Source: Sulfolobales archaeon (GTDB lineage: Archaea > Thermoproteota > Thermoprotei_A > Sulfolobales > AG1). From it: a stretch of 64,000 bases of DNA. The stretch's first letter is position 1. Every line of letters begins with the position of its first letter. Both the position numbers and the translations under genes were made by a program. Below the pieces are notes generated by a model that was not told the origin of the DNA, did not search any database, and was given only the letters and a program-made list of their open reading frames with translations. Below, in pieces: positions 8,149 through 58,325 of this stretch. The DNA lies in contig JAWBYA010000004.1 of assembly GCA_038867615.1 (NCBI GenBank), positions 163,323 through 227,322 on the forward strand, given 5' to 3'.

Positions 8149-8370
8149 CCGTTAGTCCCTGGAAGTTCATCCCAGTCATTTGTTTTCATGGCCACATCCA
8201 CAGATCTCCACACCGCCCGCAGGATCTCTATCACTGTTGGTTCACGGGCTGCTCTTTAGCCAAACCGTGCGTGGATCCCATTAGAGATCACCCCCTGGGC
8301 GGCTTAGAACGCTGTTCCCATCACCACCCAGGGTCTCTGAATATGGGTCATAGCATGACGCAATATCCCT
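8149..8370 (-). mobile_element. tnpB 3'-end/omega-RNA-like remnant, copy A
   Basis: Minus strand GATGGGAACAGCGTTCTAAGCC...ATGGGATCCACGCACGGTTTGGCT...CCCGTGAACC...TCCAGGGACTAACGG aligns by eye with 31200-31403. Confidence 0.7.
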
Positions 8371-8635
8371 ATACTTCTTCTCATCACCATCAGAATAAAC
8401 ATAGCTCTTTTGCCGTTATACTTTATTTCTACCTACTTTGACGAAAAACCGTGAGACGAGAGAGTCTCTGAGAGCAACTAGTGTTGAGCATACTACCTGC
8501 TATTAAGCTTGGAGCATCTATGCAACGATCTCTATATAGGTAGTGCTGAGGCTGGTAATATATGCCATGTGTTACGCATTGATCTTGTGTGAAAGAATAT
8601 TAGGCTTCAGATCATATCCTCTATAGGGATAGGCT

Positions 8636-9190
8636 ATGAGGAGGAGAAAATCTATATTTGATATATTTGATGAACTGATTAGAGAGATAGACAGGGAAAT
8701 CTATGAGGAATTCATGGATCTCCAGAGAAGGTTCATGTCAGAAATGAGAGAGCTATCAGAAGAGGTGGAGAGGCAGGGCTCCCCAAAACGATTCGTCTAT
8801 GGGTTTAGGATAACAATAGGCCCAGATGGTATCCCAAGGGTTGAGAGGTTTGGAAACGTGAGGAGACAGCCTGTGAGAGAGGGTGCACAGATTAGAGAAA
8901 TAGGTTACTCAGAGGAAGTAGAACCTCTTGTCGATATATATGAGGATGCCGACATGGTAACAGTTGTTGCCGAAATGCCAGGAGTTGAGAAGGATAAGAT
9001 AAAGGTAAGGGCTGTTGACAGGAAACTAATTATAGAAGCTAAGAACGGCAAAAAGTACTATAAAGAGGTAGAACTACCAACAGAGGTAGACATGGATAGC
9101 GCCAAAGCCAGCTATAAGAACGGTGTCCTCGAGGTTAAGCTTAAAAAGCTGAAGAAAGAGGAGAAGGGTAAAGAAATACATATAGAATAA
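8636..9190 (+). CDS. hsp20: Small heat shock protein Hsp20
   Basis: YGFRITIGPDG archaeal sHSP motif, alpha-crystallin domain (AEMPGV, ASYKNGVLEV) and C-terminal IxI. Confidence 0.95.
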   Translation: MRRRKSIFDIFDELIREIDREIYEEFMDLQRRFMSEMRELSEEVERQGSPKRFVYGFRITIGPDGIPRVERFGNVRRQPVREGAQIREIGYSEEVEPLVDIYEDADMVTVVAEMPGVEKDKIKVRAVDRKLIIEAKNGKKYYKEVELPTEVDMDSAKASYKNGVLEVKLKKLKKEEKGKEIHIE

Positions 9191-9362
9191 CTATCGCTCG
9201 CGAATCATCAACTAATGTGTTTTCTACCACCACATCCTCTCGCTTGTAGAGCGTATCAAAGGTAAGGTACTGTTGAGAATCCATCTGGATACGGACACTA
9301 AGAACAAAGCAGAACACGGCTAGAATCGGCTAGTCAAAAACAAGAGGCACTGCCTATCGATG

Positions 9363-10304
9363 TTACACCAAAACTAGATGCTCTTCCGAGAAACCGCTAA
9401 AGCCCTCGAGATCTAGTCTATATGCTGCCGCATATGCATTATAATATGGTGCCCCTTTTCTGGAGAATACTGTTAGAACCCGTGCCCCGTGGTTAAGCTT
9501 GTACCCTTCCCACACGGCTTCATGTCCTCGTACTATTATCTTCACACCGGTTTTCTTGATGAACTCATTTGTTATCACACTACCCCAGAGGAAACCTGCG
9601 CCCCTTGGCGATGGTACATAGTCTATATCAGGATCTTCTGTTGGGTCGTTCCACAGGATCTCCTCCAAAGTCCTCTCGTTATGATCAGCGTCTAGAATGC
9701 ATCTAAAATCAGACCAACAGCTTGTGGTTGATAGAACCGGTATTCCTCCGTGAAGGAATACTACTGTATCTCTATATATCGCGGCATATGGAAGCAGATC
9801 AAATATCCCTCTGGAAACCCTATATATCTCATCGCCCTCACCACCATATATAGCCCTAAGGATCTCTGGATAATCATGGGGGTACACGGGGAGAAAATCG
9901 GGAGGCTCATGATTACCCCTGAGGGTTATCACATTCCCTCTATATCTTTTTTTAAGCAGCGCTATGAATAGCATTGTTTCAAGCTGCTTACTCCCCCTAT
10001 CCACATAATCACCAAGGAATATTAGAAGCCCGTTGCTCTCAAGGATCTTCTCTATGTTCACATAACTAAGCAACTGGATCAACGTATCCAGGTCGCCGTG
10101 TATGTCACCTATAACAACTGCTTCGCGGTGTCTCCGAGGCTCTATCTCAACCAAACCTCTAGGCCTGCTTCTCGTCACAAGCTCCTCTTTCAACAAATCT
10201 CTAAAGCTCATTAAAACCACCATAACGTCTCCAGGCCTCCCTACAAGACCCATTACCTCTTTCTCCAGACTCTGCAGCATTTCCCACACCGTATTATGGA
10301 GCAT
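9363..10304 (-). CDS. PPP-family Ser/Thr protein phosphatase (PP1/PP2A-like)
   Basis: GDIHG, GDYVDRG, RGNHE, HGG, SPRGAG, RGHE and TVFS motifs. Confidence 0.92.
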   Translation of the reverse strand: MLHNTVWEMLQSLEKEVMGLVGRPGDVMVVLMSFRDLLKEELVTRSRPRGLVEIEPRRHREAVVIGDIHGDLDTLIQLLSYVNIEKILESNGLLIFLGDYVDRGSKQLETMLFIALLKKRYRGNVITLRGNHEPPDFLPVYPHDYPEILRAIYGGEGDEIYRVSRGIFDLLPYAAIYRDTVVFLHGGIPVLSTTSCWSDFRCILDADHNERTLEEILWNDPTEDPDIDYVPSPRGAGFLWGSVITNEFIKKTGVKIIVRGHEAVWEGYKLNHGARVLTVFSRKGAPYYNAYAAAYRLDLEGFSGFSEEHLVLV

Positions 10305-10493
10305 CCCAAAGGTATATTTGTTTGAAGCTCAAGCTCCATGCAATTTGATCATACATAATACCAGCCTCCTATCAACCCATCCGAGATACACGGAACCTGA
10401 TCTGCGATCCTCACATCTAACTACCTGGTTTATCATCTCGGGATAAATGATTATTATTTATTTACTAACCTATATCACGGAACCAAACCCTCG

Positions 10494-10670
10494 CAGTTTT
10501 GTTCTCGGGTGTTTGTTGATATTCTTTAATATACTCCTGGTCGCGGAGATCTCTTTATACTCGGGTCAAACTATTTATTGTGGATCAACTATTATAGGAT
10601 TCCCATACACTAAGAGATCGTCATTCAAAAGGCTTGGAACCTGTTCCAGTCACTACCTAGGATCTATACT
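10494..10670 (-). mobile_element. tnpB 3'-end/omega-RNA-like remnant, copy B (degenerate)
   Basis: Minus strand CCTAGGTAGTGACTGGAACAGGTTCCAAGCC...GATCTCTTAGTGTATGGGAATCC...AAACACCCGAGAACAAAACTG matches both ends of copies A and E. Confidence 0.5.
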
Positions 10671-10866
10671 GAAAACGATAAATCAAAGCAGGATCCATGC
10701 AAATATTCTCTAGAACGTCAACGAGGGAGAAGATCCTTATCTATGATTATGACCATGTTTTCCAAAAACTATAACGATCTCTAAGGAGCAGCTTTTCAAA
10801 CATGCCAATATAATATATTATCAACACCACCAAACGATATTGATCCTCTGGATGATGATAAAATGC

Positions 10867-10915
10867 TCAGACCTCACACGGCTCTTCATTGGTCAGAACC
10901 GAAGTCGCTCATCAC
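10867..10915 (-). ncRNA. Box C/D guide sRNA; D guide predicted to direct Cm34 of tRNA-Val(CAC)
   Basis: GTGATGA-GCGACTTCGGTT-CTGA-CCAA-TGAAGA-GCCGTGTGAGGT-CTGA gives canonical C/D'/C'/D spacing with 12-nt guides. TATA-like TTTATT lies about 25 nt upstream. Confidence 0.9.
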
Positions 10916-10958
10916 CATTAACATTATTATCCTGCCAGAATAAATTTAGAAACTAGGC

Positions 10959-11837
10959 ATGATGAGAACCAAGCTCAGATGTGCTAGGTGCGGCAAGAGT
11001 GCGGTGTATCTCGCAAGAACATCTGGGGAGCCTCTATGCTTAAGATGCCTTGAGAAGAGCCTTGTGAAAAGTGTTAGGAGAGTCCTTGGGAAATATGCTA
11101 AGCTAGCCCCAGGCACGCCTATCATCGTGGCAGAACCCTTAATTGCTAAACCGTGGCTTTGCTCCTCATACAAGATTCTATTGAAGGCTGTTAGGAGCCA
11201 TAGAAATAGAATAGTTGTGATTGGGTATGGAGGCGAATGTCCTGCCCATGATCGCATAGATCGTGTTATATGGCTAGGCAGAGAGGAGATCTTAGAGGCC
11301 TGTAAGCATCATAACAACCAACATGATAGAGCTACTTGCCTCTATAGGGCTGAATACCTCTCAGGAACCATGGTAGCTGAGAAGCTAGGTATAAATACAG
11401 TACTTCTTATGAGGCCGAGGGATTTGTGCTCATTAATAGGGGTAGTTGGCATCATAGCAATGAGCCTGTCTCTGGCTGTTGAATCACTCCCATTTAGGAG
11501 AACGCATACCGGGATCCAGGTTATCAATCCTCTCTATGGAGTTGGTTCTCAAGATCTGATCGCACATGCTTTTTCCCTAAACCTCGTTAAAGAGGATCTC
11601 TCATGCAACTCTACATTAGATCTCGAGGGACTCCCGGGCTATACCGATATACAGTCAATATATATGCACTCAAGCGAGATGATATATAGCTCTTCAGAGG
11701 CTATTAGAGAGATCTTCGATAAAATACCGGGACCCAAGTGTCCTTTATGCAACACACCAACTGAGGGGGGTGGTTATTGCTATATATGTTCATCTCTCCT
11801 TCCTCTTCTTAAGAAGCTCCTTGACACTACTAGATAG
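10959..11837 (+). CDS. TtuA/NcsA (Ctu1)-like protein with zinc fingers at both ends and no recognisable PP-loop
   Basis: N-terminal CxxC-x-CxxC, C-terminal CxxC-x-CxxC and 'VINPL' core. The SGGKDS position reads AEPLIA. Confidence 0.6.
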   Translation: MMRTKLRCARCGKSAVYLARTSGEPLCLRCLEKSLVKSVRRVLGKYAKLAPGTPIIVAEPLIAKPWLCSSYKILLKAVRSHRNRIVVIGYGGECPAHDRIDRVIWLGREEILEACKHHNNQHDRATCLYRAEYLSGTMVAEKLGINTVLLMRPRDLCSLIGVVGIIAMSLSLAVESLPFRRTHTGIQVINPLYGVGSQDLIAHAFSLNLVKEDLSCNSTLDLEGLPGYTDIQSIYMHSSEMIYSSSEAIREIFDKIPGPKCPLCNTPTEGGGYCYICSSLLPLLKKLLDTTR

Positions 11838-12053
11838 GTTTATACATCCAGCACCCTTCTCCAATATATTTTTCTTTATCAGGGAATCAATAACCCTAAG
11901 AGGATCATTGATCCTGTGTATCAGCTTGAGCTCCTTCACAGCAAGTATCTCCCCCACGGAGAGATTCTTCCTGAAATACTCGAACACAACACGTTCCTCA
12001 TGATCCAGGCTCTCTAATATTCTCTCCAACTCTGAAGACACAACCGCCCCCAC
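11790..12053 (-). CDS. PolB1-binding protein PBP2 family (winged helix)
   Basis: EYFxxNLSVGEILAVKEL...DPLRVIDSLIKKNILEKGxGCINL matches the crenarchaeal PBP2 pattern. Confidence 0.8.
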   Translation of the reverse strand: MGAVVSSELERILESLDHEERVVFEYFRKNLSVGEILAVKELKLIHRINDPLRVIDSLIKKNILEKGAGCINLSSSVKELLKKRKER

Positions 12054-12182
12054 ATTAATATTAATGAATTGTAGTTATTTTATATGAGCCGGAGAACACG
12101 ACGATAAGCTAAATGATTCGAAAAATAATATTTAAAAGCTTATTAACAAAAATTCTTATTGATAGATAGTGGTGTGTAATAC

Positions 12183-12635
12183 ATGTCGGAAGTAGACGAA
12201 AAAGATCTAAAAATATTGGAGGTACTCCAAGAAGAGGGTGGCATAACATTCGTGGAACTGGGAAAAAGGCTTAACATGAGCCCCTCAACAGCCTATATAC
12301 GGGTTAGAAGGCTCAAACAAATGGGGCTTATAAAGAAAGTGGTATCGATAATAGATTACCAGAGACTAGGCTATAAGGTAAGAGCCTTCATATTTGTTAA
12401 AGTGGAGCCTAAGAAGCTTGAACAAGTTGCTAAAGAACTATCGGAGGTAGATAATATATTACAGATCCAGGATATAACGGGAGAGCCTTCCCTACTAGTA
12501 CAAGTTATAGCAAGGGATAACGAACACCTAGCACAGATACTCGATCACATAGGCAAGATAGAGGGAGTCTTGTCGACAAACACTATGATAGCCCTGAGAA
12601 CCCTTAAGGAAAGCTATAGGATAAAGCTAACGTGA
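12183..12635 (+). CDS. Lrp/AsnC family transcriptional regulator
   Basis: DEKDLKIL...ELGKRLNMSPST HTH plus RAM domain (ITGE). Confidence 0.95.
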   Translation: MSEVDEKDLKILEVLQEEGGITFVELGKRLNMSPSTAYIRVRRLKQMGLIKKVVSIIDYQRLGYKVRAFIFVKVEPKKLEQVAKELSEVDNILQIQDITGEPSLLVQVIARDNEHLAQILDHIGKIEGVLSTNTMIALRTLKESYRIKLT

Positions 12636-12725
12636 TGCAAAGGCCTAAACCCTTTTTAGCCTCAAGACCCCTGTCATCTGGATATGGATATTGCTGCTTA
12701 GCGTTCTAAGCGGTTAAAAGCAATC

Positions 12726-13268
12726 CTACCTAAACTCGAATTTTATCCTCTCGTATCCCGGTGCTGTGTCGCCCCTGCTTCCCCTAATTACTATAACATT
12801 ACCTATGATAGTTACCTCCCCGCCCATTATAACCTCTATTATTCTCGAAGATCTCGGAAAAACCCAGTATGCCGAGTAATCATACTCAAATACGTCGGGT
12901 TCGTATCTATTCTCATAAACATTAATCCCCCTTCTAATCTCAGCCTCAATAAGTATTAGGAACGCTATAAAGGGTCTACCCAGATCCCCCCTGAACCCTA
13001 TATCGGTAAAGACCACCTCTGGCCTGGCTGGCGAGCCGTTAACCGTGGTCTCTTCCTCGTCTAGGTATTCCTGCATGTTGCCCATCAACTTCTCGATCTC
13101 CTCCCTCTTTAGATCATAGTTGCCCAGGATCTCTCTGTAATACCCCATAGGATCTATATAGTCGAAGATAAGCGTATACGCTATACCGCTTCTGGATACA
13201 TTAAACACAGCTGTAGCATATACAGGCTTAACCATTTTTGACGCTATCTCTAACTCCTCTTTACCCAT
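12726..13268 (-). CDS. Conserved hypothetical protein
   Basis: 180-aa ORF overlapping the upstream methyltransferase stop; typical codon usage. Confidence 0.7.
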   Translation of the reverse strand: MGKEELEIASKMVKPVYATAVFNVSRSGIAYTLIFDYIDPMGYYREILGNYDLKREEIEKLMGNMQEYLDEEETTVNGSPARPEVVFTDIGFRGDLGRPFIAFLILIEAEIRRGINVYENRYEPDVFEYDYSAYWVFPRSSRIIEVIMGGEVTIIGNVIVIRGSRGDTAPGYERIKFEFR

Positions 13269-14107
13269 ATGTCGAGCACCACCTGGTATTTTCTTGGACC
13301 AACGCTGCGTACTATCCTTCTACCCTCTATGCTATATTTAGCCACATCTCTATTACTCTTGATCGTTTCTCTATAGGTTTTCTCAACCTGCTCCAATGCC
13401 TCTAGCTTGTTTCTCGCCTTGGTGAATTCATATACATGTATATATCCCTCCATATCTATAGCCCCCAACGCCTTTGGGAATGCTTTGAGGGCTAGCTCTG
13501 GGAGTGGTAATAAGACTCTCTGCGCGCTATTACTATACCTATCGATTATCTCGAGCGCGTCTCCCTTAATAGGGATAACTACTCCCTGAACCTTGTTGAG
13601 CTCTATGTTCTCTAGCATTAACCTATATGCTTCTTCGTTAATATCTATAGATATAACCCTAGCTGGTTTCGCGAACTTTGCTATTATTATTGAGAAGAGA
13701 CCTGCGCCAGCGAACATATTGATTATATTCTCTCCCGGCTTAACGAGCCTGGCTATTCTTATATGTTCGTAGCTAAGCCTGGGCGATATGTAGATCCTAG
13801 CTATATCTACTTTAAATACACATCCGTGTTCTCTATACAGGGTCTCGGTTCTCTTCTCGCCGGCTAGCCATTCAAGTCTTCTTAGCCTATAGCTCCCCTC
13901 AACGGGGGAAATGGCTGCCCATACTGATTTGAGCCAGTTCAGTTTTTTGAGCATCTCTCCAGCAAGGATCCTTAGATCCTCTATCTCTATGCTAGGGGGT
14001 TTTCTTATAACAGCTATGTCTCCCACAATATCGAGACCGCTCCACACGAGGTTAGCCTTCTCTTCCCCAAGAATCTCTTTTGCTATCTCTCTAACAAGCC
14101 TCACCAT
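13250..14107 (-). CDS. Trm5/Taw2 (Met-10+) family tRNA SAM-dependent transferase
   Basis: DIVGDIAV, YREHGCVF, SPRLSYEH and MFAGAG motif I. Confidence 0.9.
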   Translation of the reverse strand: MVRLVREIAKEILGEEKANLVWSGLDIVGDIAVIRKPPSIEIEDLRILAGEMLKKLNWLKSVWAAISPVEGSYRLRRLEWLAGEKRTETLYREHGCVFKVDIARIYISPRLSYEHIRIARLVKPGENIINMFAGAGLFSIIIAKFAKPARVISIDINEEAYRLMLENIELNKVQGVVIPIKGDALEIIDRYSNSAQRVLLPLPELALKAFPKALGAIDMEGYIHVYEFTKARNKLEALEQVEKTYRETIKSNRDVAKYSIEGRRIVRSVGPRKYQVVLDIWVKRS

Positions 14108-14119
14108 ACAGAAGCCCTT

Positions 14120-14806
14120 CTATCCGGGGATCCCCCTCTTAAGATCCTCCAACCTATTTATAAGCTCTCTTTTCGTGATAGTCTCCGCTAACAGTACCTC
14201 CAGATCCTCTATAGATCTTCTCATAACATCAACCTTATGCCTGAACCCAGGCACTAGGGAGTCTGGGTAATCCAGATACTTAACCCAAGAGTATATATCC
14301 TTCATTATCTTCACAAAAGCCTCTGCATCCTCCACTCTCCACTCAGCAATGAGGTTAACAGCATGCCTCTTAATCTCACCCGTAAGATCTCCTATGGCTA
14401 GTAATCTCGCCTCTGGCGGCGCCTCTTCTATGCAATACCTGGCTAGAGAGTCCTCCACCTTTCCACCTATAACTGCTAAGAGATATATTGCCTCACAATA
14501 CTCTATGAACGCCTGTAACGGCAGCCCATATCTTATGAGATCCTCCTCATTCTTAGAAACCCTCACCAAGTTCTCTACATGGGATGCACAGCTATTTATC
14601 TCTGCAACAGCTTTAGATAGATCCATAGCGTTTAGATAGGTAACAGCCCTGCCCGAGCATCTTATCACTTCCCTTGACAGCCTGAAGATCTCCTCCCTAA
14701 TCCTATCCCTTTTATCTATCATCGCTACTGCACGCTCGATCTCGGATTTTAGCCAGTTAGCAATGCTGGTAGTTTCGCCCATACATCTCCTCTGGTAATA
14801 TATCAT
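14120..14806 (-). CDS. Translin/C3PO family protein
   Basis: RExIxxxSRExIRxS, EYCEA, GDLTGEIKR and LVPGFRHKVD motifs. Confidence 0.88.
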   Translation of the reverse strand: MIYYQRRCMGETTSIANWLKSEIERAVAMIDKRDRIREEIFRLSREVIRCSGRAVTYLNAMDLSKAVAEINSCASHVENLVRVSKNEEDLIRYGLPLQAFIEYCEAIYLLAVIGGKVEDSLARYCIEEAPPEARLLAIGDLTGEIKRHAVNLIAEWRVEDAEAFVKIMKDIYSWVKYLDYPDSLVPGFRHKVDVMRRSIEDLEVLLAETITKRELINRLEDLKRGIPG

Positions 14807-15053
14807 ACCTCCCTAATCTATATGCTAGATATTTCCAGTAATAGCGTAATCAATCACCCATCATTTTCTGCTAGGTTGCCTATCTCTTTCTAAGATTTAT
14901 TGAAGACCTAATCTGCGGATCTAAACTTGAGCCTAGTAGAGACAGAGGATCTTTTCGGAGCTAGGGAATAATCTAAAACCCGCAGAGGGGTGGCTAAGGG
15001 AAACGCGGTATCTCCTAACACTAAATCAAATCTGCGTGATCATGATGCGAGCT

Positions 15054-16697: not shown

Positions 16698-16739
16698 CCA
16701 AGGAGAAATCCTTTTTTACCAATAAAAATAGGGATAATA

Positions 16740-18333: not shown

Positions 18334-18360
18334 GGCGATGCCCAGCCGCCTTTACTGTTT

Positions 18361-26019: not shown

Positions 26020-26049
26020 AAACGATTACTCCTGGAGATTCATTAATAC

Positions 26050-26152
26050 CCCATAGACTCCCACACAATCAGCAGGATCTCTATCCCTGTGGGTTGTGGT
26101 TCGTTACTAGCCCAACATAATGATGCACACACCACCATCCAGAGCTATACAG
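26050..26152 (+). mobile_element. tnpB 3'-end-like remnant, copy C (partial)
   Basis: CCCACACAATCAGCAGGATCTCTATCCCTGTGGG...CATCCAGAGCTATACAG resembles the core and end of copy G. Confidence 0.4.
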
Positions 26153-26286
26153 AGATCAAACCATAACTACGCCATCCCATCCATAGATTATAGATACCTC
26201 TTACGAGTATTGATAAGAAAACAACCCACTTACTTATCTATGCCTAGAGCATAGGATGCTTGAAAAGTTCTAGTAAACCTATACAC

Positions 26287-27177: not shown

Positions 27178-27307
27178 GAGGCTTCTCCACAATAACATTT
27201 AATATGAGATTTAAATTTAAATCGATATGGCATCCATAGCAGAAGTGCTAACAAACATTATAGCCAGACGGCGGTTTTAGACGGCTAAAATTACTACTAG
27301 CTACATA

Positions 27308-27470
27308 CATTCGCCTCTGGATATTCTTTGATATCTCTCCATAACCTAGAGCCCCACCCAGTCTAAGGGATCTAGTCTTCCCTATGGGATCACAACGTGT
27401 TTCTAGCCAAACGGCATAGAACTCTCAACCGCTAGGAGCATTTCTGGAATGCTTAGAACAATACCTCTAG
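27308..27470 (-). mobile_element. tnpB 3'-end/omega-RNA-like remnant, copy D
   Basis: Minus strand GTTCTAAGCATTCCAG...ATGCCGTTTGGCTAG...GTGATCCC...ATATCCAGAGGCGAATG. Confidence 0.55.
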
Positions 27471-27546
27471 CACGAGCTAGAGAGGCTAATATCGAAAACA
27501 ATACATCTCCAAAACAATAGAAAACACCTATAAATATCTATAAGAA

Positions 27547-28281
27547 CTAATAGGAGACCAGTCCATAGAATGCCTTGAAGGTGCCGAAGTCAACAGTTCT
27601 CATGATCTCTATTCCATGTGCCTTGAATAGAGAGATATAATCGCTTGTTCTAATAGCGTGAACAGCAAGCAGGCGGTTAAAGATCCTACCCTTAATGCTA
27701 TCTGTAACAGCTACCGCGATCCTTACGCTTCCTCCTTTCCTTAGTATCCTTGATATCTCAGATATAACCTTAGCTTTATCTCTAAAGATATGTATTACCA
27801 AACTTGATATATAGTGATCTATAGTAGCATTAGCTATAGGGATCCTATCTATAGAGGCTCTCAAAAACACCGCTTCCTTGGTCTTGCGAGAAGCTGTTCT
27901 AAGCATGGGTAGGGATATATCGATCCCTATCAAGGAGCCTCTATATCGTTTCCTCTCAAGCAGCGATAATAGGGATCCTGTACCGCAGCCCGCATCCACC
28001 AGGATCCCTTCGGATAGATTCCCGGTTAACTCTTCATAGAACTTATCAAGAGAGCCTCTTCCACTAAGCCTCCAACCAACCCGGGACCATGGATCGTATA
28101 GTCTAGGGAATCTTTCGAAAAGCCCTACCCATCCTTGATCGCTGCCTAAGAAGTCGATGATCCTTCCATCGATAATGCTATACTTAGCACCACATTGTAT
28201 ACATACAATATATCCTTGCTCCTTTCTGAGCTTTGAGGAGCATTGGGGGCATTGTAGTACGGGTAACACGCTCTCTATCAT
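27547..28281 (-). CDS. Class I SAM methyltransferase with N-terminal Trm112-like zinc ribbon
   Basis: LQCPQC...CIQCGAKYSIIDG, then VDAGCGTG and GIDIS. Confidence 0.88.
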   Translation of the reverse strand: MIESVLPVLQCPQCSSKLRKEQGYIVCIQCGAKYSIIDGRIIDFLGSDQGWVGLFERFPRLYDPWSRVGWRLSGRGSLDKFYEELTGNLSEGILVDAGCGTGSLLSLLERKRYRGSLIGIDISLPMLRTASRKTKEAVFLRASIDRIPIANATIDHYISSLVIHIFRDKAKVISEISRILRKGGSVRIAVAVTDSIKGRIFNRLLAVHAIRTSDYISLFKAHGIEIMRTVDFGTFKAFYGLVSY

Positions 28282-30769: not shown

Positions 30770-30861
30770 AAGGATATAAGCCGTGAACCACGCTATGTAG
30801 GATCAGTAGACCTTTTCTGAGTAAAAGCCTTATATAGCTATTAAAGATACTTGGATTTAAA

Positions 30862-31125
30862 ATGGTTACTGGTAAGCTCTATAAGACAGCTGAAGCGGCT
30901 AGGGCTCTTAACATTAGTGTTCCACTGTTAAGAAGCAGGTGAAAGAGGGCAAGATAAAAACTATTAAGGTTGGCAAACCCCAGATATCGATGAGAGAGAA
31001 TGAATATATGGAATCCCTAGCAATAGGATATGAATATGCAGAAAAAGAGCCTATGAGCTGTTTTCTCATTAATATACATAGAGAGGATTAATAGGCTTTG
31101 GAAATCTTCATAGATATAGGGGCAA
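30862..31125 (+). pseudogene. IS607-family TnpA (MerR-like HTH plus serine recombinase) remnant
   Basis: MVTGKLYKTAEAARALNISV, frameshift near 30920, then STVKKQVKEGKIKTIKVGK...LAIGY...**ALEIFIDIG, matching IS607 TnpA landmarks (HTH, 'GYARVS', 'xxxDIGSG'). Confidence 0.65.
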
Positions 31126-31199
31126 TGCCTAAAAACTACCCTCCCATCAACACACAGAGGCATTTATAAGCTTTAGCCTTAAGACATATTGCTCTCAAC

Positions 31200-31403
31200 G
31201 CGGATCTACCACACAAGCCCCGGACAACGATGGGAGCAGCGCTCCAAGCCCTCCAGGGCTAATCCTAAATGGGAGCCACGTGCCGTTTGGCTCGACAGCC
31301 ACCCACGACCCCGCAGGGGCAGAGACCCTGCATGTAGAGGCGAAAACCCCTGGATAAGACCATGAATAATAAATGATCAGAAAAAACATCCAGAGACAAA
31401 CGG
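31200..31403 (+). mobile_element. tnpB 3'-end/omega-RNA-like remnant, copy E (best preserved)
   Basis: One frame reads GSHVPFGSTATHDP, like the crenarchaeal TnpB C-terminal tail. Contains a GCAGGG/CCCTGC hairpin and ends CATCCAGAGACAAACGG. TTTATAAG lies at about 31163. Confidence 0.72.
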
Positions 31404-31679
31404 AAGCCCATGCCCAGATACAAAGAGAATCCTAGATAGCCAAAACAGCCTAGATAATGGGCATGTGCGACCACTATGTATTTATCAACCTAGGAATGGT
31501 TAATATAGATGGATGATATATATAGGGATAACATCAACAGACCTGCAGCTCTCTCCAAGATTTAGGCTCAGTATTATTTATCTTGAGAGCATTATTATAA
31601 AGGATCATGGGCAAATATTCGAGAGCCTCACGATCAATAATACAACCGTGATCGAGACAAGCCCCTGTGGGGGAGGCTG

Positions 31680-37841: not shown

Positions 37842-38516
37842 ATCACATACATTACAATTCCAGCCAAACCTCCCAGCTTATTGAAGATCTTAACGAAGAC
37901 TCTATAAAATTCTGCTTATACTAATGAGAGCTCTATACATAGTTATCCACACCCAATACCTTCACTATAAACACAGATGCAATATGGATTCACGGATCCA
38001 TAAAGTATATGCTAATCAGAATAAAAGGCACGTCAGTAGTTTATAAACAGCCAGCCCTTCCTATTTCTTTAACATCTACCCTATGGTGGTACTAGTAATA
38101 GGCAATACCGCTGTTTCCTTTCAATTCTATAATAGATCTAACTGAAGGGTTTTGGTTAGCTTCTAGCCCAGTGGCATCGGGGTTTCCATCTACGTTCAAG
38201 AGAACATCCATGGGTTGATTATCGCATTACTCTATCCCATCTGGGGCTAATATGAGAACTAACCCATAAACAAATCATCTCAACCAAGAACTACAAATAC
38301 CTCCTACAAATACCAATAAGAAGAAAACAGCACAAATACACGGCAACAATGTAACGACAAGAGCTACAAATGAGACCCAACGGGCTACATGATCCGTGGG
38401 AGATAGAGACCCATCAGAACGAACGGAGATCCTACGATAGCCAGCAAGACGCCAAAAGGCGCCGAGAAACAAATAAAAATGGAAACATAATACTCTATGA
38501 TGGATGACAAAGACAT

Positions 38517-40579: not shown

Positions 40580-41084
40580 AGATTCTTCCCCCCTTTGAGA
40601 ACCATATATAAATCTTCTCATCACTTACTTCTATATGTATCTTCTCATCAAAGGATCTATTGCTATCATGCCGAGCCCCGAGGATCGTGCTAAATATATC
40701 TATTAGAACTCCACATATGTCTGCCCCACACTTTCCTGAATCTATCTGCGGCGATCTGAAGAAGCAATTAGGCACACCCTGCTCTCTACTAAGCTTTATA
40801 GAGGAGATATAGAGAGACCCTATCTTTTTAAGCACATCTCCTTCCCTTATATACACATCAACCCTGCCTGGGTTGGCTTTCCACGTGTTAACTATTATGA
40901 GCACGCTGTAGCCCGTTAACCTCATCAGATCCCTAAGATCTTCAAGACTCTTCTTCCCCCTATTAATCCTCGTCGCTCCCGGAAGAGTCTTTGCCAGATC
41001 GTTAACGAAAGACCTAACTCTCCTCGAAGGCCTATGGCTCGATGTTACCAGAACCTCCCCACCGCGTTTCTCCGTCTCTCCCAC
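40530..41084 (-). CDS. Brix-domain ribosome biogenesis protein
   Basis: VTSSHRPSRRVRSF, NRGKKSL, KANPG and GPRI motifs. The start is likely GTG 41084; the longer ORF runs into remnant F. Confidence 0.88.
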   Translation of the reverse strand: MGETEKRGGEVLVTSSHRPSRRVRSFVNDLAKTLPGATRINRGKKSLEDLRDLMRLTGYSVLIIVNTWKANPGRVDVYIREGDVLKKIGSLYISSIKLSREQGVPNCFFRSPQIDSGKCGADICGVLIDIFSTILGARHDSNRSFDEKIHIEVSDEKIYIWFSKGGRICGPRIGIREAYREKEI

Positions 41085-41265
41085 TCGTTTGTCCCTAGAT
41101 ATTCTTTGATGTTCTTTTATATCCGGGGATCCCTGCCCAGCTGCAGAGATATCTCGTACTTCGGGTTCATGGGTTGCTATTGAGCCCGACGTCATGGGGC
41201 TGCCATCTACCAAGATATAACCCTTAAGAAGGTTGAAGCTGTGTTCCCAACACCCGGAGGCGGAT
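41085..41265 (-). mobile_element. tnpB 3'-end/omega-RNA-like remnant, copy F
   Basis: Minus strand GGGTGTTGGGAACAC...GATGGCAGCCCC...GGCTCAATAGCAACCCATGAACCC...TCTAGGGACAAACGA; translates DGSPMTSGSIATHEP. Confidence 0.7.
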
Positions 41266-41311
41266 CGAAGTGCTCATAGCCAAAACCATATAGATCAAAT
41301 TCGTTCAATAG

Positions 41312-42034
41312 CTAGGGAGAGTGCTTATGTGATCCGCTGATTATAGATTCTATCGCATCGTGGACTTGGGTAAGTGATGTGATTGTGACGTCGGGCTCTA
41401 TCTTAGACAGATCTATGCCTAGAACCCTCGCATACTCCTCGCCAATTGATACGGATCTCCTGACATGTATGGCCTTCAACCCATATTTTTTGGGGTAGTA
41501 AACATCAAAGACTATGTTATCTCCTATGGAGATCTTTATAGGCCCATCGATCGATGTTGTATAAAAACAGCTAGAGCTCTTGAGGCAGCCTTTCTTATCA
41601 GGGCTGAATATCTCTCTAAAATATTGTAGAAGACCGGCTTCTCTGACAACACACTCCTGGTATTTCCAGAACCCGTTTGTTGAGAGTACTAGGTAGAACC
41701 CCATATCCCGTAGCCTCTCCAATACTCTTGGCGCATTGTCGAGAACCTCCACAGAGCTGCATACCTTCTGAAGCTCCTCTAGAAATACATTCTCTCTAGG
41801 CTTTACCCCATTCTCTACGAGCATCTCTGACAATATATAATCCCAATCATATGCTCTTGGATCTCCTGTTTTGACTTTCTCCATATGCTTTTTAGCAAAG
41901 ATCTCCAATACCCTATCTACACTTATCCCCAGGGTTTTCGATACCTCCTCATAAACCTTCGGCATCACTCTCCTGCCAAAGGGGTTGATAACCAGAGTAC
42001 TGTCTAGATCGAAGAATATTATTGCCCTAAACAT
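41312..42034 (-). CDS. HAD-superfamily hydrolase
   Basis: FDLDSTL, STNG and IGDN..FD motifs. Confidence 0.9.
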   Translation of the reverse strand: MFRAIIFFDLDSTLVINPFGRRVMPKVYEEVSKTLGISVDRVLEIFAKKHMEKVKTGDPRAYDWDYILSEMLVENGVKPRENVFLEELQKVCSSVEVLDNAPRVLERLRDMGFYLVLSTNGFWKYQECVVREAGLLQYFREIFSPDKKGCLKSSSCFYTTSIDGPIKISIGDNIVFDVYYPKKYGLKAIHVRRSVSIGEEYARVLGIDLSKIEPDVTITSLTQVHDAIESIISGSHKHSP

Positions 42035-51691: not shown

Positions 51692-51723
51692 TAAACAAAC
51701 AGCCTTCCATAACCGCTAAATTA

Positions 51724-52488
51724 TTAGATCCCAAGCCTCCTCTTAATAAACCTGTTAAGCATCGAAATGAGAGCTACAAGCCTAACCCTCCTTTTGAGAC
51801 TTACAAAGAACCATCTATAGGGATCGAGCTTCTTTTTAGGAACAGGTGGTAGTATCTTCTCCATCGCCGCTGACCTCTCCTTCGACGCCACATAGACCCA
51901 CCTGGTTCCGCCTCCTATATATCTATCAAGCCCGACGCCATAGACCGCACGACCTCTAGCAGCCTCGCGTTTAGCCATATCAATTATAACGCCTATTGGT
52001 GCGAATGTAAAAACACTTGTCGGGCATACCTCGACACATGCTGGTTGCAAACCATGTTGTATTCTATCTACGCAGAATGTGCATTTATAATACTTACCAT
52101 CACTCCCTCTAGCAGGAACATCGAACGGGCATGCAGCTAGGCAGTTACCTATACCTAGACAGTCATCACTGTTGATCACAACGGCGCCCTCATTACTAAT
52201 AACAATGGCTGAGACAGGACATGCTAGAGCGCACGGCGGGTCCAGGCAATGCATGCATTGAAAGGGTAGTGGGAGTATCCCTCTAGCTTCGTGGAAGAAC
52301 ACTATCTTCCAATTGCTTGCGCTTAGTTTCGAAGGGCTTGTAAAAGATCCTGTGAAGGCGAGCTCCTCTGCTGGGAGACCGTTCCATTCTTTACACGCGA
52401 GTTGGCATGCTCTACACCCTATGCACTTATCTAGATCTACTAACACGCCATAGCCGTTATTAACCCTCTCTATCCCAGTGATCCTCAT
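51724..52488 (-). CDS. Formate dehydrogenase-type 4x[4Fe-4S] beta subunit
   Basis: [37 protein letters not shown] (one Cys replaced by Ile) and CTFC...CVEVCP. Confidence 0.9.
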
Positions 52489-55400
52489 ACTATAACCCTT
52501 CTCAGCTTACCCAACCATCCCTTACTCTCCTGTATAGACGTAACCACATCTATAGCGTCAGGGCTTAGTATATTGCCAACAGGTCCTTGGACTGCGCCAG
52601 CAAATCCAGAGAACCATGTGATACTAACTATAGGTATACAGCCTTCATCATAGCGCCAGCAGCTCTGCTGCCCAGTATCGACTACATAGGCCTTAAGCCT
52701 TATAGAACCTCTGATAGTTACTATCTCCACCAGGTCTCCTGGAGATACGCCTAGCCTCTCAGCAACATCCTTAGGGATCGTTATAAACGGTTCTGGGACG
52801 AGCTCCCTTAGTAATGGGAGATTCCTAGACATAGAGCCCGAGTGGAAATGCTCGGTAAGCCTATTGCTAGTTATTATCACTAGCTCGCCTTCTGTTGCAG
52901 CTAGCTCTGCTGGGATCGTTGATAGACCACCTACCCCTATTCCCAGATCTACTCTACCGAGCATCATGTCAAGGTTATACCTATTAATCCACGCTATAGA
53001 TGGGTATTTCACAGCAAACTCGGTGTGTGGAGACTCAGCAGGCTCTGCATGGATCGGCCATCTGAAATCATAGCCAACATACCAACCTCCATCCTCTTCA
53101 ATAATCCTGGCCACAGCCTCTCTATAACCCCCCATCTCTTTAGAATATCTGGATAGCCTCTCACGAATACCCATATATTTTTCTTTGAAATCGCGCCACC
53201 CATTGCCCGGGAAGAAAGGTCTCTTAAGACTTGCAGGCAGGCTAGCCGTCTCTCTATCCCAATACAGAGTATCGTTAGCCCAGAGGTAGACCGCCCCTGT
53301 GATCTTAGAGAACTCCTGGTAGCTAAGCACCCTTACCTCTTCCTTATCTTCTATTACGAAGACGCTCCTGATCTTTGGCTCCCCTGTTCTTATGAAGCCT
53401 ATTATATCGAGACCACCAAAGAGATCCGATATGCCGCTCAACCTCCTCTTAAAAGCCCTCGGCTCCCAGAAACTATGCCCTGGTATGAATGCAGGCCTAT
53501 ACTCGCCTGTATATTCATCTATCCACTCACCGGTCTCACCACATACAATCCACCTTCTCCCAGCTGCCTCTATATTTATACATCTCCCGATGCCTATTGA
53601 TAGCGAGTCATAGTTATACATGAACCTAACATTCTGGGGCCATGACCAGCCCCAGTTTTTATATACACCATAGATTCTGCTGAAGAGACCGTCGATCTCT
53701 TCCTCACTCCGCAAACCATTATCCCTAGACATAGATCTAAAGATATCCCTAACAGGATCATAGAGACCTTGATATAGAAGCATAGAGAAGTTGATCTCCT
53801 TGTTTATGATTCTCGGGTTCACCTGCTCCTCAAGCCCACCAACAGGTTTTGAGGATCCCGTTCCGCCGCTATATTCCCACGATGAGTGGGGCTCCACAGC
53901 CCTTCTATACACCTCTATATGGCTATTTCTTTTCCTAAAGATCACTGCCTCGTCCTTCACACCATAATGCTCGCTAGGCAGCCTAATTCCCTGCTTCTCT
54001 CTAAGTCTTCTATAGATATTCACTATGATCCAATAGTCAGGTCTCGAATCACCTATAGGATCTATAACCCTGTATGACCACTGAATAACCCTATTACCAT
54101 TAGTCCTGCTTCCCTCCTTCTCAGCGAAAGAGCATGCTGGTAAAAGTATATCGGCAAACCATGCCGTCTCGGTCTCGAAGAGATCGCTCACCACCAAAAG
54201 ATCCAAGGAGGAGAGGGCTGCCATAACCAGCCTAGAATTGGGATTAGTAACAACAGGGTTTTCACCGAATATCAGGGCTGCCTTTATATCGCCTCTGAGC
54301 GCTGCTCTCACAAAAGAAACCTCGGAGTAACCAAGCCCCATGGGGAAATCACAGACCACAGTACCATTAATAGGATCTTCAGGTGGTATTGTACCGCAAA
54401 ACACGCCCCATGTAAGCTCGAGCCTGCGCCAACCATAGAAGTTATATACTTGGAGCACCTTGTTAAGATCTGCTTGTCCTTTGCTAGGCCTGGATATAGA
54501 TCTAAAAGGATCTTTATCACAAGCCCATTCAGGAACCTCCCAGCTCCAGGCATCAGGCATCCCCTGGAGCTTCCAGTCTTGATAAACCCTTATAGATAGT
54601 GTATTTATGGGCGGCGACACATAGCCCGGAAGAGAGCCAATACCATTTCCTTGCACATCTGTTGCTCCTTGGACGTTGCTGTGTCCTCTGAATGGGTGTG
54701 TTCCTCCTCCTGGGAAGCCCACATTGCCTAGTAGTAGCTGGACTATAGCTGCAGCCCTGATAATATTGATGGTAGCGTTTGTGTGTTGTGTGAAGCCCAT
54801 GGCCCACTGTATGATTCCGTGCTTCCTATGGTTTGTAGCAACACCACTCCTCTCAACAAAGATCCTAGCAACACTCCTCAAAAGATCAACAGGAACGCCA
54901 GAGATCCTCGAAACCTCCTCAGCGTTATAATCCTTCAATAGATCCTTAAGATCCTCCAGATCATCATGATCTATGTTCCATCTACCCATAAGCCTTCTAA
55001 ACTCGTCAAGCTGATCTATAGGCGGGTCTCTATCGAAGAAGGCATAGTGGAGTATATAAAGAAGTATTGAGGCATCAGACCCAGGTCTGAAAGGAACCCA
55101 TATATCTGAAACCATCGCTGTTCTCGAGAACCTTGGGTCGAAACATATGAAAATAGCCCCTCTATCCTCCTTAGCCCTCATCAGATGCCTCATTGAGAGG
55201 GGATGAGCCTCTGCAGGATTTGAGAAGAATAGAACCACATCTGCTAGTGATAGATCCTCGAGACTCGCTGTCTCAGCACCCCAGCCATATGTCACCCCTA
55301 ACCCTGTTACTGTCGAGCTATGGCATTTCCTATACTGCGAATCTATGTTCGATGTACCTATATATACGGCTAGCTTGCTCACCAGATAAGCTTCCTCGTT

Positions 55401-55964
55401 CGTGAGTACAGAGGATCCAAGGATCTGGACGGGATTCTCTCTACCCACATAGAAATAGCCATCATTATGAACTGGCGCTCCAGCTCTTCTCCTCCACCCA
55501 TCCAGGATCTTTGAGAGCCTGTCAGCTATATATTCTAAAGCCTCATCCCATGTGATCGGTCTCCAGTTTGGAGGATACTTCTTTATAACAGCCAATAGAT
55601 CATCCCAGCTCTTAGCGCGAAGAATCTCTTCAATAGGCGGTTTAGGGCCTGTTCTCATCATCGGTCTCGAGATCCTGAGGTTGTTTTTGACAAGCTGGTA
55701 CGATGCCACACCCTTTGGACATAAAGCTCCCTGGTTTATATAGGAATCCTTAGATCCTGCTAACCATATAACTTTATCGCCATCTACGTAAAAATCCATA
55801 GAACATCCAACCGAGCAGTATGGACATATGGCCTTAACAATTCTAAGATCCTCCAAACCCCTTTTCCCACCGATCTCGCCCAGCTCCCATGTCGATTTAT
55901 AGATTGTCTTCAAAACAGTAACCAATTTATTCACTCTCAGGGTGATAAATACTCTAACACCCAT
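52485..55964 (-). CDS. Mo/W-bisPGD formate dehydrogenase alpha subunit (FdnG/FdhA-like, Cys ligand)
   Basis: CPYCSVGC...[29 protein letters not shown] and RLTEHFHSG motifs; no twin-arginine leader. Confidence 0.9.
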
Positions 55965-56121
55965 ACCGATGAACCGTTTCTACTGCTAGGAAGCAAGGAT
56001 ATATTGTGATTACACTAAGTTTAGAGAAAGCCTGTGCAAAACGTCTGAATGGCATTGGGCTATTGATATCAACAACATATCTTCGACTCATAGGCTATTG
56101 CTAAAAGCATTATTATAGCTA

Positions 56122-56949
56122 TTAACACCTGTCCGTCAGATCTTTGAGAGTTCTCATTATAGCTATCCCTGCTGCACCCAGCCTTTCAAGATCAGTGGTC
56201 TTTGATATAATGTCTTCTCCTGTCAACCCTGTGAGAACCAGAATCCCCCTCACCCCCGCATCTATGGCTAGTTTCATATCAGTGTCTACCCTATCCCCTA
56301 TAATGATCAAGTTTTGCCTTGGTATACCGTGCCTCTTTTCAACCAGATCTATGATCCATGGATTGGGTTTTCCAGCAACAAAGTCAGGATTTCTCCCTGT
56401 TGTCGCCTCCAGCGCTGCAATAATTGCTCCAGCGCCTGGGTCTAGTCCGTCTTCTACGGGGATCACGTGATCCGTGTTTGTAGCTATGAAGAGCGAGCCG
56501 TTGAGAAGTGCTCTTGCAGCTGCCCTCAACTTATGGTAGGTGAGGTTTCTGTCAAGCCCTACTAAGACTGCTGTTGATCTAACAGCCTCTTCTCCTGTCA
56601 AAACTCTGTGGTGAGCTAGAACCGCTTCCTCGATAAGCCCTTCCTCACCAACTATATAGACTTCAGATGCTCCTTTCTGTTCATAGAGCCATGACGCTGC
56701 TAGGTAGCCGCTTGTGATCATACTATCGATCCCAACGATTATTCCGAGATCTCTTAGCATCCTCACATACTGGGCTCTACTCCTTGTTGAGTTGTTTGTT
56801 AGGAATAAGACCCTGTAACCCCTAGAGATCAGCGATCTAAGTGCGGTAATATTCTCTTCTATGGGCTTTCTTCCAATCCATACAACACCGTCTAGATCCA
56901 CGATCAGTGTCTGCCCTCTATCCAAGCAAACTCTCTCCATAGATTTCAC
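56122..56949 (-). CDS. HAD-IIA (NagD-like) phosphatase
   Basis: DLDGV, LTNNS, ATNTD, GKP and GDRVDTD motifs. Confidence 0.93.
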   Translation of the reverse strand: MKSMERVCLDRGQTLIVDLDGVVWIGRKPIEENITALRSLISRGYRVLFLTNNSTRSRAQYVRMLRDLGIIVGIDSMITSGYLAASWLYEQKGASEVYIVGEEGLIEEAVLAHHRVLTGEEAVRSTAVLVGLDRNLTYHKLRAAARALLNGSLFIATNTDHVIPVEDGLDPGAGAIIAALEATTGRNPDFVAGKPNPWIIDLVEKRHGIPRQNLIIIGDRVDTDMKLAIDAGVRGILVLTGLTGEDIISKTTDLERLGAAGIAIMRTLKDLTDRC

Positions 56950-57010
56950 ATGACTCTATTACCTGGTTAACTGATATAGAATAGCTTATATCCCTCTGGG
57001 GCACTATCTC

Positions 57011-57997
57011 TTGGTATTTATATTGGATAATGCTGCCCAGGTGCTTCTGGTAGCTGTAGTGGTGTACTTAGCTACTATAGCCCTAACCATCCTGACCCTG
57101 AGGATCGGTACTAGGCTTGGGATTGTTGGAAGGGATGTTCATAAAAGTTGGAACAGCTATGCAGTGAGGATAGGAGGCCTATCCCTCATAATAGCCCCTC
57201 TCATAGTCCTTATCATAAAACCATCTATAGCCACGTTAGCATTACTACTCGTATCGATCTCATCAATGGTTATTGGTCTAATAGACGATCTTAGAACACT
57301 CCCAGCTGTTAGGAAAGTCCTCCTATCAATAACCCCAGGAGTAATCCATATGATCGTAGGATTATACGAGCCAAGGCTCTTCATACCCTTTCTAGGCGAT
57401 ATAGGCGCAAGGATCCTCTATATATTCCTAATACCCTTAGCATATGCCGTGGCTCTAAACGCTGCTAATATGATGGATACCCATAATGGCTTGCTAGCCG
57501 GCTCTATATTGGTATCGCTTGCTGTTCTCTCTCCACTGTTGATCCTGAGATCCCCGGATCATGAGGCGATGTTCTTCATAATATTGGCGATCGAGGCATC
57601 TATAGCAGCCTTCCTTATTCTCAACACATATCCTGCCAGGGTTTTTGTTGGCAATGCAGGATCATTTATAATAGGCTCCTGGATCGCGTTCATAGGAATA
57701 TATGGTAGATCTGAATTTCTAGTGGTGATGGCCCTTTTCCCCATGGTTATAAACGGCTTCTCGATAATAACAAGCATAGGTGGCCTTAAAGAAAAAAGCC
57801 TTATAAAAACAAGACCTGTTAGTGTTGAGAATGGGATCATAAGGGCTAACCCAGATCCCAGGGCCCCAATAACTATAGCACATATAGCATCATCATCGAG
57901 ACCCGGGGTTAGAGAAACCGAGCTTGTCATAGGCGCCTGGATCCTATTCTACATAGCATCAATAATAGCATCAATACTCTTCTCCATAGCATCATAA
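57011..57997 (+). CDS. aglH: UDP-GlcNAc:dolichyl-phosphate GlcNAc-1-P transferase (GPT/MraY family)
   Basis: GRDVHK, GLIDD, NAANMMDTHNGL and NTYPARVFVGNAGS motifs; multi-TM. Confidence 0.82.
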   Translation: MVFILDNAAQVLLVAVVVYLATIALTILTLRIGTRLGIVGRDVHKSWNSYAVRIGGLSLIIAPLIVLIIKPSIATLALLLVSISSMVIGLIDDLRTLPAVRKVLLSITPGVIHMIVGLYEPRLFIPFLGDIGARILYIFLIPLAYAVALNAANMMDTHNGLLAGSILVSLAVLSPLLILRSPDHEAMFFIILAIEASIAAFLILNTYPARVFVGNAGSFIIGSWIAFIGIYGRSEFLVVMALFPMVINGFSIITSIGGLKEKSLIKTRPVSVENGIIRANPDPRAPITIAHIASSSRPGVRETELVIGAWILFYIASIIASILFSIAS

Positions 57998-58095
57998 CAA
58001 CATAGATAGAATCATATGTTTGGCTTTATAGCAGTTAGTATTGTAATGTCGTCTGATTAGATACCCTATCCTTAGCTTCACAGAGCCCCCAAGAC

Positions 58096-58325
58096 CCGTT
58101 TGTCTTTGGATGTTGGTTCCACCGCTTTATTTTTATTAATGGTTCTATCAGGGGGCTTCTACATCGCCCACAGGGTCAGAGATCCTGTGTGATCGTGTGC
58201 GGCTGTTGAGCCAAATGGTGCGTGGTTCCTTATCTCAAAGCGTATAGATACCCTGGGTATTAATGGGGAGGCGGTCTTTAGGCATGCCACCCTCAATACT
58301 ATCAACCTCGTGTCCCTATTATATG
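58096..58325 (-). mobile_element. tnpB 3'-end/omega-RNA-like remnant, copy G
   Basis: Minus strand TATAATAGGGACAC (YNRD-like)...GGAACCACGCACCATTTGGCTCAACAGCCGCACACGATC-ACAGG..CCTGT...CATCCAAAGACAAACGG. Confidence 0.7.

Follow-up and report, generated by a model that had tools for sequence, protein, structure and literature searches.

Miniature elements with a tnpB-derived RNA scaffold and IS607-type ends in the genome of a Sulfolobales archaeon

Protein-less elements of the IS605 family that carry omega RNAs, standalone omega RNAs that act in trans and archaeal palindrome-associated transposable elements (PATEs) derived from tnpB insertion sequences (IS) are already in print. In Geobacillus stearothermophilus, PATEs often carry omega RNAs, which are used in trans (Meers et al. 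2023, PMC10055086). The introduction of Altae-Tran et al. (2023, PMC10691335), citing earlier work, likewise states that standalone omega RNAs function in trans. In a clostridial IS607 element, 40 bp of the left end and 60 bp of the right end are enough for excision; the core dinucleotide is GG, the donor joint is scarless and TnpB requires a TGGG motif (10.1101/2023.11.20.567912). According to the homing model, TnpB cuts this donor joint and repair restores the element (PMC10055086, 10.1101/2023.11.20.567912). Here we describe a family of dispersed repeats in a 64,000-nucleotide stretch of DNA (the window) from a Sulfolobales archaeon, which covers positions 163323 to 227322 of contig 4 in a 2.22-Mb assembly of 28 contigs that is 94% complete (genome G000). 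These repeats are almost certainly miniature elements and IS remnants. It is very probable that they make up, with their parent IS, a non-autonomous family resembling miniature inverted-repeat transposable elements, in varied states of decay.

The family resembles the bacterial PATEs and standalone omega RNAs in being protein-less, in carrying the ends of a tnpB IS with an RNA scaffold in the right end, and in occurring in many copies beside few effectors. Action in trans with TnpB would be a further likeness, presumed by analogy. The bacterial PATEs are of the Y1/hairpin type, whereas the present family belongs to a hyperthermophilic archaeon, has IS607-type ends (GG, serine recombinase) and bears the fused TATA box of its parent. 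The PATEs of Haloquadratum walsbyi (Dyall-Smith et al. 2011, PMC3119063) are also archaeal, numerous and heterogeneous, show deletions between short direct repeats and keep the termini of tnpB elements. However, they have near-terminal palindromes, are of IS605 type and can be as short as 52 bp, while the present family keeps a structured RNA of ~195 bp and IS607 ends. The Clostridium botulinum IStron (Zedaveinyte et al., 10.1101/2023.11.20.567912) is similar in its GG at both junctions, its scarless joint without duplication, its TGGG-type motif, to which the T before GGG in about half of the present left flanks may correspond, and its omega RNA in the right end overlapping the tnpB 3' end. 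Unlike the IStron, the present family has no group I intron and its G000 copies have no tnpA. The sotRNAs (sense overlapping transcripts) of Halobacterium (Gomes-Filho et al. 2015, PMC4615843) are also non-coding RNAs from archaeal tnpB 3' ends, of IS1341 type; they are transcripts detected from full genes, whereas the present loci are mostly gene-less and known from DNA alone. In the open-access literature that was searched, including PMC12558985 and PMC11061315, no description was found of IS607-derived miniature elements with omega RNAs, nor of one in Thermoproteota that combines a promoter with a scaffold. The family would place protein-less, guide-RNA-carrying tnpB derivatives also in hyperthermophilic Thermoproteota and in the IS607 branch. 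What is gained is a clear anatomy (left end, promoter, scaffold and GG right end) and no new kind of system.

The original prediction listed seven segments of the window with common colinear blocks, and proposed that they derive from the 3' terminus of tnpB, which overlaps a structured RNA stopping at the right end of the element, with a variable flank beyond. Both tblastn and the alignments bore this out. The open frame C1:751-2175 (contig 1; 474 codons from stop to stop) ends in ...NIQGQTV, the translation of ATCCAGGGACAAACGG. When the TnpB of C1:754-2175 was used in tblastn, the repeat copies were matched by its residues ~389-468, and the repeat is therefore the 3' end of this tnpB. The shared blocks correspond to the final ~195 bp of C1:783-2283, an IS of 1501 bp that carries only tnpB and no transposase gene. 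Other full or near-full tnpB copies are frameshifted (C2:203153-204549, two frames) or split over contig ends (C7:1-651 and C6:2-226).

The left end of the parent, GGGCTGTTTTCTTTTTGATAT, was recognized by alignment of three upstream regions, and its first ~70 nt recur just upstream of ~20 orphan copies, including the one at 31057-31124 of the window. Among 18 copies aligned with their flanks, the boundary was sharp at both ends and the flanks were unrelated. By blastn, positions 1-70 of the miniature element matched IS positions 1-71 (85%) and positions 153-344 matched IS positions 1307-1501 (87%). The intervening ~80 nt weakly resemble the promoter region of the parent, with TTTATAA followed by a GGTGGG...CCCAC hairpin, as judged by eye. 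A shared AAGC marks the deletion junction, and the well-preserved copies are ~300-350 bp long. A shorter form (~300 bp) lacks a 46-nt hairpin, CCYGGGTGGTGATGGGAGC-AGC-GCTCCAAGCCAYCCGGGG, again between AAGC repeats, while in the shortest form (~225 bp) left-end position ~30 is joined directly to the TATA box. The earlier view that almost only the scaffold survives was thus not upheld, as the intact copies represent entire non-autonomous transposons, in which the left end and a TATA box are retained. Since they keep both ends, their copy number is ascribed to transposition and not to repeated truncation.

Conservation was calculated per 10-nt bin over the 17 left-end-bearing copies. It amounted to 0.81-0.94 in the left end, 0.66-0.71 at positions 61-100, 0.80-0.88 in the TATA region, ~0.9 in the first hairpin and 0.82-0.98 in the scaffold. 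The motif TTTAT[AG], located ~45 nt upstream of the scaffold in the miniature elements, is present in 15 of these 17 copies. By analogy with archaeal promoters in general, we take it to be a TATA box, for which the transcription start would lie ~25 nt downstream.

The family is abundant in the host genome, which has a G+C content of ~45%. The query 31195-31410 of the window gave 39 genomic matches, and 49 with permissive blastn, nearly all of which stop at ...CAAACGG. A repeat profile built for nhmmer from 15 genomic copies, and run on the window alone and genome-wide, returned 65 matches in the genome, representing ~60 loci in 2.2 Mb. As had been proposed, the 3' end is sharp: GG finishes 33 of the 45 genomic copies that reach it, mostly as ...CAAACGG, and each of the 45 is followed by a different flank. 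An Rfam scan of the window at gathering thresholds found rRNA (an archaeal 23S rRNA is present) and three tRNAs only, and the repeat matches no curated family.

In the window, five of the seven segments were matched by the profile (E 3e-98 to 4e-7), in agreement with a dispersed family, while segment 10494 was unmatched and 26050 marginal (Table 1). An alignment of all seven displays the colinear blocks. For 10494-10670, no profile match was found up to E 100, and the blocks are visible by eye in degenerate form. It was taken as a very old copy because the orthologous spot of the sister genome G002 holds a recognizable copy in the same orientation (E 5e-8). Segment 26050-26152 is possibly a fragment of the family: it contains a 44-nt match over a palindromic hairpin (26056-26099; E 0.001 for the minus strand versus 2.5 for the plus strand) and lies in a 161-bp stretch, 26023-26183, which is missing from both sister genomes, G002 and G003. 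Several copies proved longer than first described, since the one reported at 31200 begins with its left end at 31055, the 41085 copy reaches 41330 and the 8149 copy extends to ~8394. The window contains no tnpB, as originally noted; all five genomic matches to the TnpB zinc ribbon fall outside it.

Table 1. Features of the repeat family and of the surrounding IS607-type remnant in the window (CM, covariance model)
Feature	Position	Strand	Evidence
Long-form miniature element, intact, 349 bp	31055..31403	+	nhmmer 31054-31404, E 3e-98, profile positions 3-348; CM 140 bits (31265-31403); left end matches parent IS
Left end of the 31055 element, GAGCTGTTTTC...	31055-~31124	+	
TATA box TTTATAA of the 31055 element	31163-31169	+	
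Weakened 5' hairpin of the 31055 element	~31196-31219	+	
Hairpin GATGGGAGC-AGC-GCTCC... of the 31055 element	31220-31258	+	
Omega-RNA core and right end ...CAAACGG of the 31055 element	31265-31403	+	
Predicted guide AAGCCCATGCCCAGATACAA, flank directly 3' of the right end	31404..31423	+	by position
Left part of a different IS607-type remnant: left end, tnpA N-terminal fragment (30862-30977), short tnpB fragment	30812..31053	+	
Right end of the same host IS607-type remnant, overlapping the predicted guide	31404..31472	+	89-90% identical to right end of the G002 element
5'-truncated copy: scaffold and decayed tnpB coding sequence	8149..8394	-	nhmmer 8148-8338, E 2e-33, profile positions 157-348 only; CM 71.9 bits (8149-8285); tblastn TnpB residues 381-417
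Heavily decayed copy, stems largely lost	10494..10670	-	blocks by eye; G002 ortholog E 5e-8
Possible short fragment: central hairpin and degenerate end	26050..26152	+	marginal, E 0.001 on opposite strand
Decayed copy with recognizable TATA region and scaffold	27307..27564	-	nhmmer 27309-27564, E 3.9e-7; no CM match
Second-subfamily copy, ending ...CAAACGA	41085..41330	-	nhmmer 41086-41259, E 5.5e-15; CM 47.8 bits (41085-41210)
Copy without left end and two 5' hairpins: TATA region 58232-58297, scaffold 58096-58237	58096..58297	-	nhmmer 58094-58229, E 4e-19, and 58232-58297, E 2.5e-8; CM 71.5 bits (58096-58237)

The structure of the scaffold was analysed with a covariance model. Five helices were drawn by hand on a 17-sequence alignment, and 69 matches from G000 and from relatives in several families were realigned to the resulting model. 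These helices comprise GAGCC(N)/(N)GGCTC, an outer helix ACCC/GGGT, an inner CAGGAT/ATCCTG hairpin, a 10-bp terminal stem GTCCCTGGAT/ATCCAGGGAC and an inner helix of 3 bp. The compensatory changes proposed as a check of the RNA were found: 24 of the 29 pairs have changes on both sides, and 88.6% of the cells are paired. Both-side changes occur in 140 cells versus 41.5 +/- 5.8 after shuffling, and none of 500 shuffles reached the observed values. When the partners were slid by 1-3 columns as a control, pairing was 27-44% and the both-side cells numbered 16-24, which is 6-8 times lower. Compensation can be seen in the raw MAFFT alignment as well (CCCTGGAT/ATCCAGGG versus CCCTAGAT/ATCTAGGG; CTCCCTAGG/CCTAGGGAG; CCCTACCGC/GCGGTAGGG). 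The model (139-nt core, E <= 0.001) recovered four window copies (Table 1) and missed those at 27309, 10494 and 26050; the older the copy, the worse its stems. RNAalifold gave almost no consensus on the MAFFT alignments, where subfamilies with indels are misaligned by one column, and was set aside. A CCGCC (scaffold)/GGTGG pseudoknot was also dropped, as its variants do not compensate when inspected by eye. The codon-position entropy of the TnpB tail showed no 3-periodicity in just eight sequences.

The original prediction had named both the IS200/IS605 and the IS607 type, and the evidence favours the second of these. In G002, locus L068 carries a tnpA of the serine recombinase family directly upstream of a tnpB whose product is ~42% identical to the G000 TnpB. 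The stretches that flank this pair match the repeat profile, one in its left-end part (E 1e-6) and the other in its right-end part (E 1e-20), and the L068 tnpA is 47% identical to the IS607-type TnpA of another G002 element, L053. Sixteen of 20 left ends start with GGGCTG (GG(G)CTG), facing the GG that finishes most right ends. Two occupied sites gave a clean comparison with their empty counterparts. The site of C1:74096-74440 is empty in G003 and reads ...GGGGATT-GG-GAGGAGTAGAG, which fits the model save for one GAG unit, while L039, occupied in G003, is empty in G000 (...AGGTATATA-GG-TGATAC...). No target-site duplication was seen at the compared junctions. As the ends match those of an element with a serine recombinase tnpA and tnpB, and GG is found at junctions and empty sites, the family is assigned to the IS607 type. 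C23:6589-7206 (205 residues), the sole PF00239 match of G000, was rejected as an IS607 TnpA: its catalytic domain is N-terminal and no tnpB is adjacent, as in the resolvase/invertase type. It is followed by a G+C-rich repeat, CCTCCCCGCCCTGAAGGGCGAGGG..., which recurs at the ends of C11, C17, C19, C12, C14 and C27.

The distribution of the copies was compared with the sister genomes G002 and G003, with G005 from the same genus, and with related DNA contigs from hot-spring metagenomes; the 21 sequencing runs surveyed included none of RNA. G002 and G003 yielded 44 and 25 matches (E <= 1e-30), at places differing from those in G000. The best window copy, at 31055, is absent from both sisters. The block 30812-31472 (661 bp) in which it lies is likewise absent at the orthologous site of both, and a contig of run X8, from a related lineage, is without 30786-31472. 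Outside the miniature element, this block matches the ~2-kb element L053, which encodes a serine recombinase with a MerR-type helix-turn-helix (IS607-type TnpA) followed by another tnpB; hence the remnant of a different IS607-type element surrounds the best window copy. This host has the miniature element in place of ~815 bp of its own sequence, and a CCCATGCCC/GGGCATG hairpin in its right end. As for the other copies, 41085 is shared at least partly with G003 and absent from G002, 8149 has a G002 ortholog, 10494 has degenerate orthologs in both sisters, and 27309 is aligned in both. At the 41085 site, 9 nt of G002 replace window positions 41084-41330, which represents an empty site with the right end of the copy exactly at its edge. 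The median pairwise identity within G000 is 77%. Two copies of the shortest form, C3:36788-36985 and C3:245454-245652, differ in their flanks and match at 100% identity over 195 nt, which suggests a recent transposition although an intact transposase was not found in the assembly. The alternative of old IS scars, also raised in the original prediction, fits most window copies, such as the decayed 10494 and 27309 shared with the sisters, but not the intact miniature elements. In G005, at least 95 matches belong to a tnpB family ~48% identical to that of G000, many with internal stops, which represents a large expansion.

A scan for a tnpB with the same 3' end, as had been suggested, found a single intact gene, C1:754-2175. 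Its frame contains a Cas12f1-like TNB domain (42.9 bits), and the TnpB profile reaches solved TnpB, Cas12f and CasPhi chains. Residues D217, E305 and D390 and two cysteines are invariant in a 13-sequence alignment, of which the printed part shows the third RuvC motif region only. From the motif contexts VDVNENN, VLEDLG and HRDVVA, we assign the three acidic residues to RuvC I-III. With this triad intact, the protein is a TnpB and is not TldR-like. In most relatives, the tnpB frame spans the whole scaffold and is closed by a TAG that lies 10 nt short of the right end, within the 3' strand of the terminal stem (ATCTAGGGAC). Within this genus, CAG stands in its place and the paired base differs too, so that the frame runs past the right end into the flank. 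The resulting read-through frames measure 467-686 codons, depending on the insertion site (C1:751-2175; L092, L097, L098, L119, L144, L147, L142 and L094).

Taken together, these features give the following picture. Deletions between short AAGC repeats removed tnpB from the 1501-bp IS607-type parent and left the left end (~70 bp), the TATA box, the 5' hairpin and the last ~195 bp. A serine recombinase TnpA moved the resulting elements, with crossover at the GG dinucleotide. In intact copies, the retained TATA box would drive a standalone omega RNA, with ~16-20 nt of the flank as its 3' part, and the single intact TnpB (C1:754-2175) could load this RNA in trans. After excision by TnpA, TnpB could then cut the GG-flanked empty site, and repair from the sister chromosome would restore the element (homing). 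By analogy with the bacterial systems, we give close to an even chance, and no better, to the intact copies producing functional omega RNAs that are used in trans. The retention of ~195 bp of right end, versus the 60 bp needed by the clostridial transposase, is by analogy suggestive of such an RNA function. It is a more tentative and somewhat unlikely step further that the intact elements are self-contained guide-RNA genes, with ~20 loci sharing one TnpB in trans as a multiplexed homing set. If this were true, the guide set would home insertions back after excision, and could drive them into empty alleles in hot-spring populations that exchange DNA. Most window copies are in any case old and no longer subject to a constraint related to homing, four being truncated or decayed and one to two barely recognizable.

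Several observations speak against this explanation. The alignment that shows covariation was fitted to the model, and most of its diversity comes from tnpB-linked copies of many genomes; what it shows is therefore constraint on the RNA of the family, not on that of every gene-less copy. Folded alone, window 31190-31403 is unremarkable (z -1.36). Individual loci do not persist intact for long, since the copies 10494 and 27309, found in sister species as well, no longer have their stems. At the 41085 copy, which ends in ACGA, the empty junction of G002 has GA instead of GG, and a third empty-site comparison (L077) is G-rich and not clean. In the 94% complete G000 assembly, no intact TnpA was found, with only two tnpA fragments, and only one tnpB of this family is clearly intact. 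Moreover, the TATA box and the scaffold are kept in all three deletion forms, which may reflect only two nested deletion events.

Much of this would be expected if the elements were inert DNA parasites, that is, neutral deletion derivatives and scars whose RNA is unused and whose scaffold persists since it adjoins the right end and the copies are young. Old orthologous copies do decay, the identity among copies is modest (median 77%), an intact transposase was not found in the assembly, and two nested events explain the three deletion forms. Against such inertness, the scaffold is the best conserved part of the 17 left-end-bearing copies (0.82-0.98, versus 0.66-0.71 at positions 61-100), a related IS607 element needs only 60 bp of right end (10.1101/2023.11.20.567912), and standalone omega RNAs work in trans elsewhere (PMC10691335, introduction). 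We consider inert elements a real possibility, at appreciably less than even probability. In this respect, the family would allow a natural test of selection for, versus mere tolerance of, standalone omega RNAs, and its thermophilic TnpB/omega-RNA pair is compact and has a structure supported by covariation.

It is very unlikely that the elements serve mainly as mobile promoters, with neighbouring genes driven or disturbed from their TATA box and by read-through. A TATA box is indeed present in most copies, and the 8149 copy ends 26 nt before the start of the enolase gene on the same strand. Yet this copy is without the TATA region, matching profile positions 157-348 only, and the copies have mixed orientations relative to their neighbours.

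We regard it as highly improbable that the family consists of IS200/IS605-type PATEs, for which a Y1 TnpA mobilizes single-stranded DNA and recognizes subterminal hairpins and a 4-5-nt target motif. Such an origin would agree with the tnpB-only parent, of a kind often filed as IS1341/IS605, and with the 10-bp stem GTCCCTGGAT/ATCCAGGGAC in the right end. However, no match to the Y1 transposase (PF01797) was found in G000, at 94% completeness, while the control was positive in 6 of 14 reference genomes. No conserved 4-5-nt motif was seen 5' of the left end beyond GG(G): the upstream flanks share nothing other than a T bias before GGG, with T preceding GGG in about half of them. Homologous ends flank the serine recombinase tnpA in G002, and a second IS607-type element has a similar left end (common CTGTTTTCT).

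For the proposed homing elements, guides would match their own insertion sites only. When the 16-nt flanks of 45 copies were compared with the genome (<=2 mismatches), no exact second target was found, and the near matches, zero to a few per guide, are at chance level (~1 expected per guide). No recurrent upstream GG motif was seen at the near matches of these 45 guides. The flanks are ordinary intergenic DNA, which fits guides restricted to their insertion site, as the homing model requires. Genes adjacent to the copies encode enolase, Hsp20, phosphoesterase, succinyl-CoA ligase, methyltransferase, HerA-like ATPase, HAD hydrolase, glycosyltransferase and phosphoribosyltransferase. A domesticated guide repertoire, by which a TnpB- or TldR-like protein would reach host or viral targets in regulation or defence, would agree with the many copies per genome with differing flanks (5 to 7 in the 64-kb window). 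It is extremely improbable, since the triad is intact, the elements keep mobile ends, second targets of the guides do not exceed chance, the flanks lie by housekeeping genes, occupancy varies between sister species as for mobile DNA, and neither guides matching viral or plasmid protospacers beside a GG motif nor conservation of position together with guide across species were seen.

Some minor features of the window concern single copies. The 8149 copy has the right end ...CTAACGG. Its distance of 26 nt to the start codon of the enolase gene (Pfam; 8122-8149) on the same strand means that its presumed guide overlaps the enolase 5' leader. The copy at 27307-27564 lies within stretches that align continuously with G002 and G003; an X8 contig skips 27304-27553 (joint 27303/27554), and another joint in the metagenome contigs lies at 41132/41264. 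The 41085 copy has an A-rich tail like that of the frameshifted parent C2:203163-204655. A weak profile match at 38142-38302 on the minus strand (E 0.007, window-only search) may be another decayed copy, and an X8 contig has 304 other letters replacing 38135-38433. Elsewhere in the genome, a second, unrelated tnpB family is represented by C1:11364-12746, C6:23920-25308 and C1:51250-51747, with 460-462 codons, the tail ...DINRYE.RTP and its own 3' end. One of its copies lies just downstream of the miniature element C1:10695-11037.

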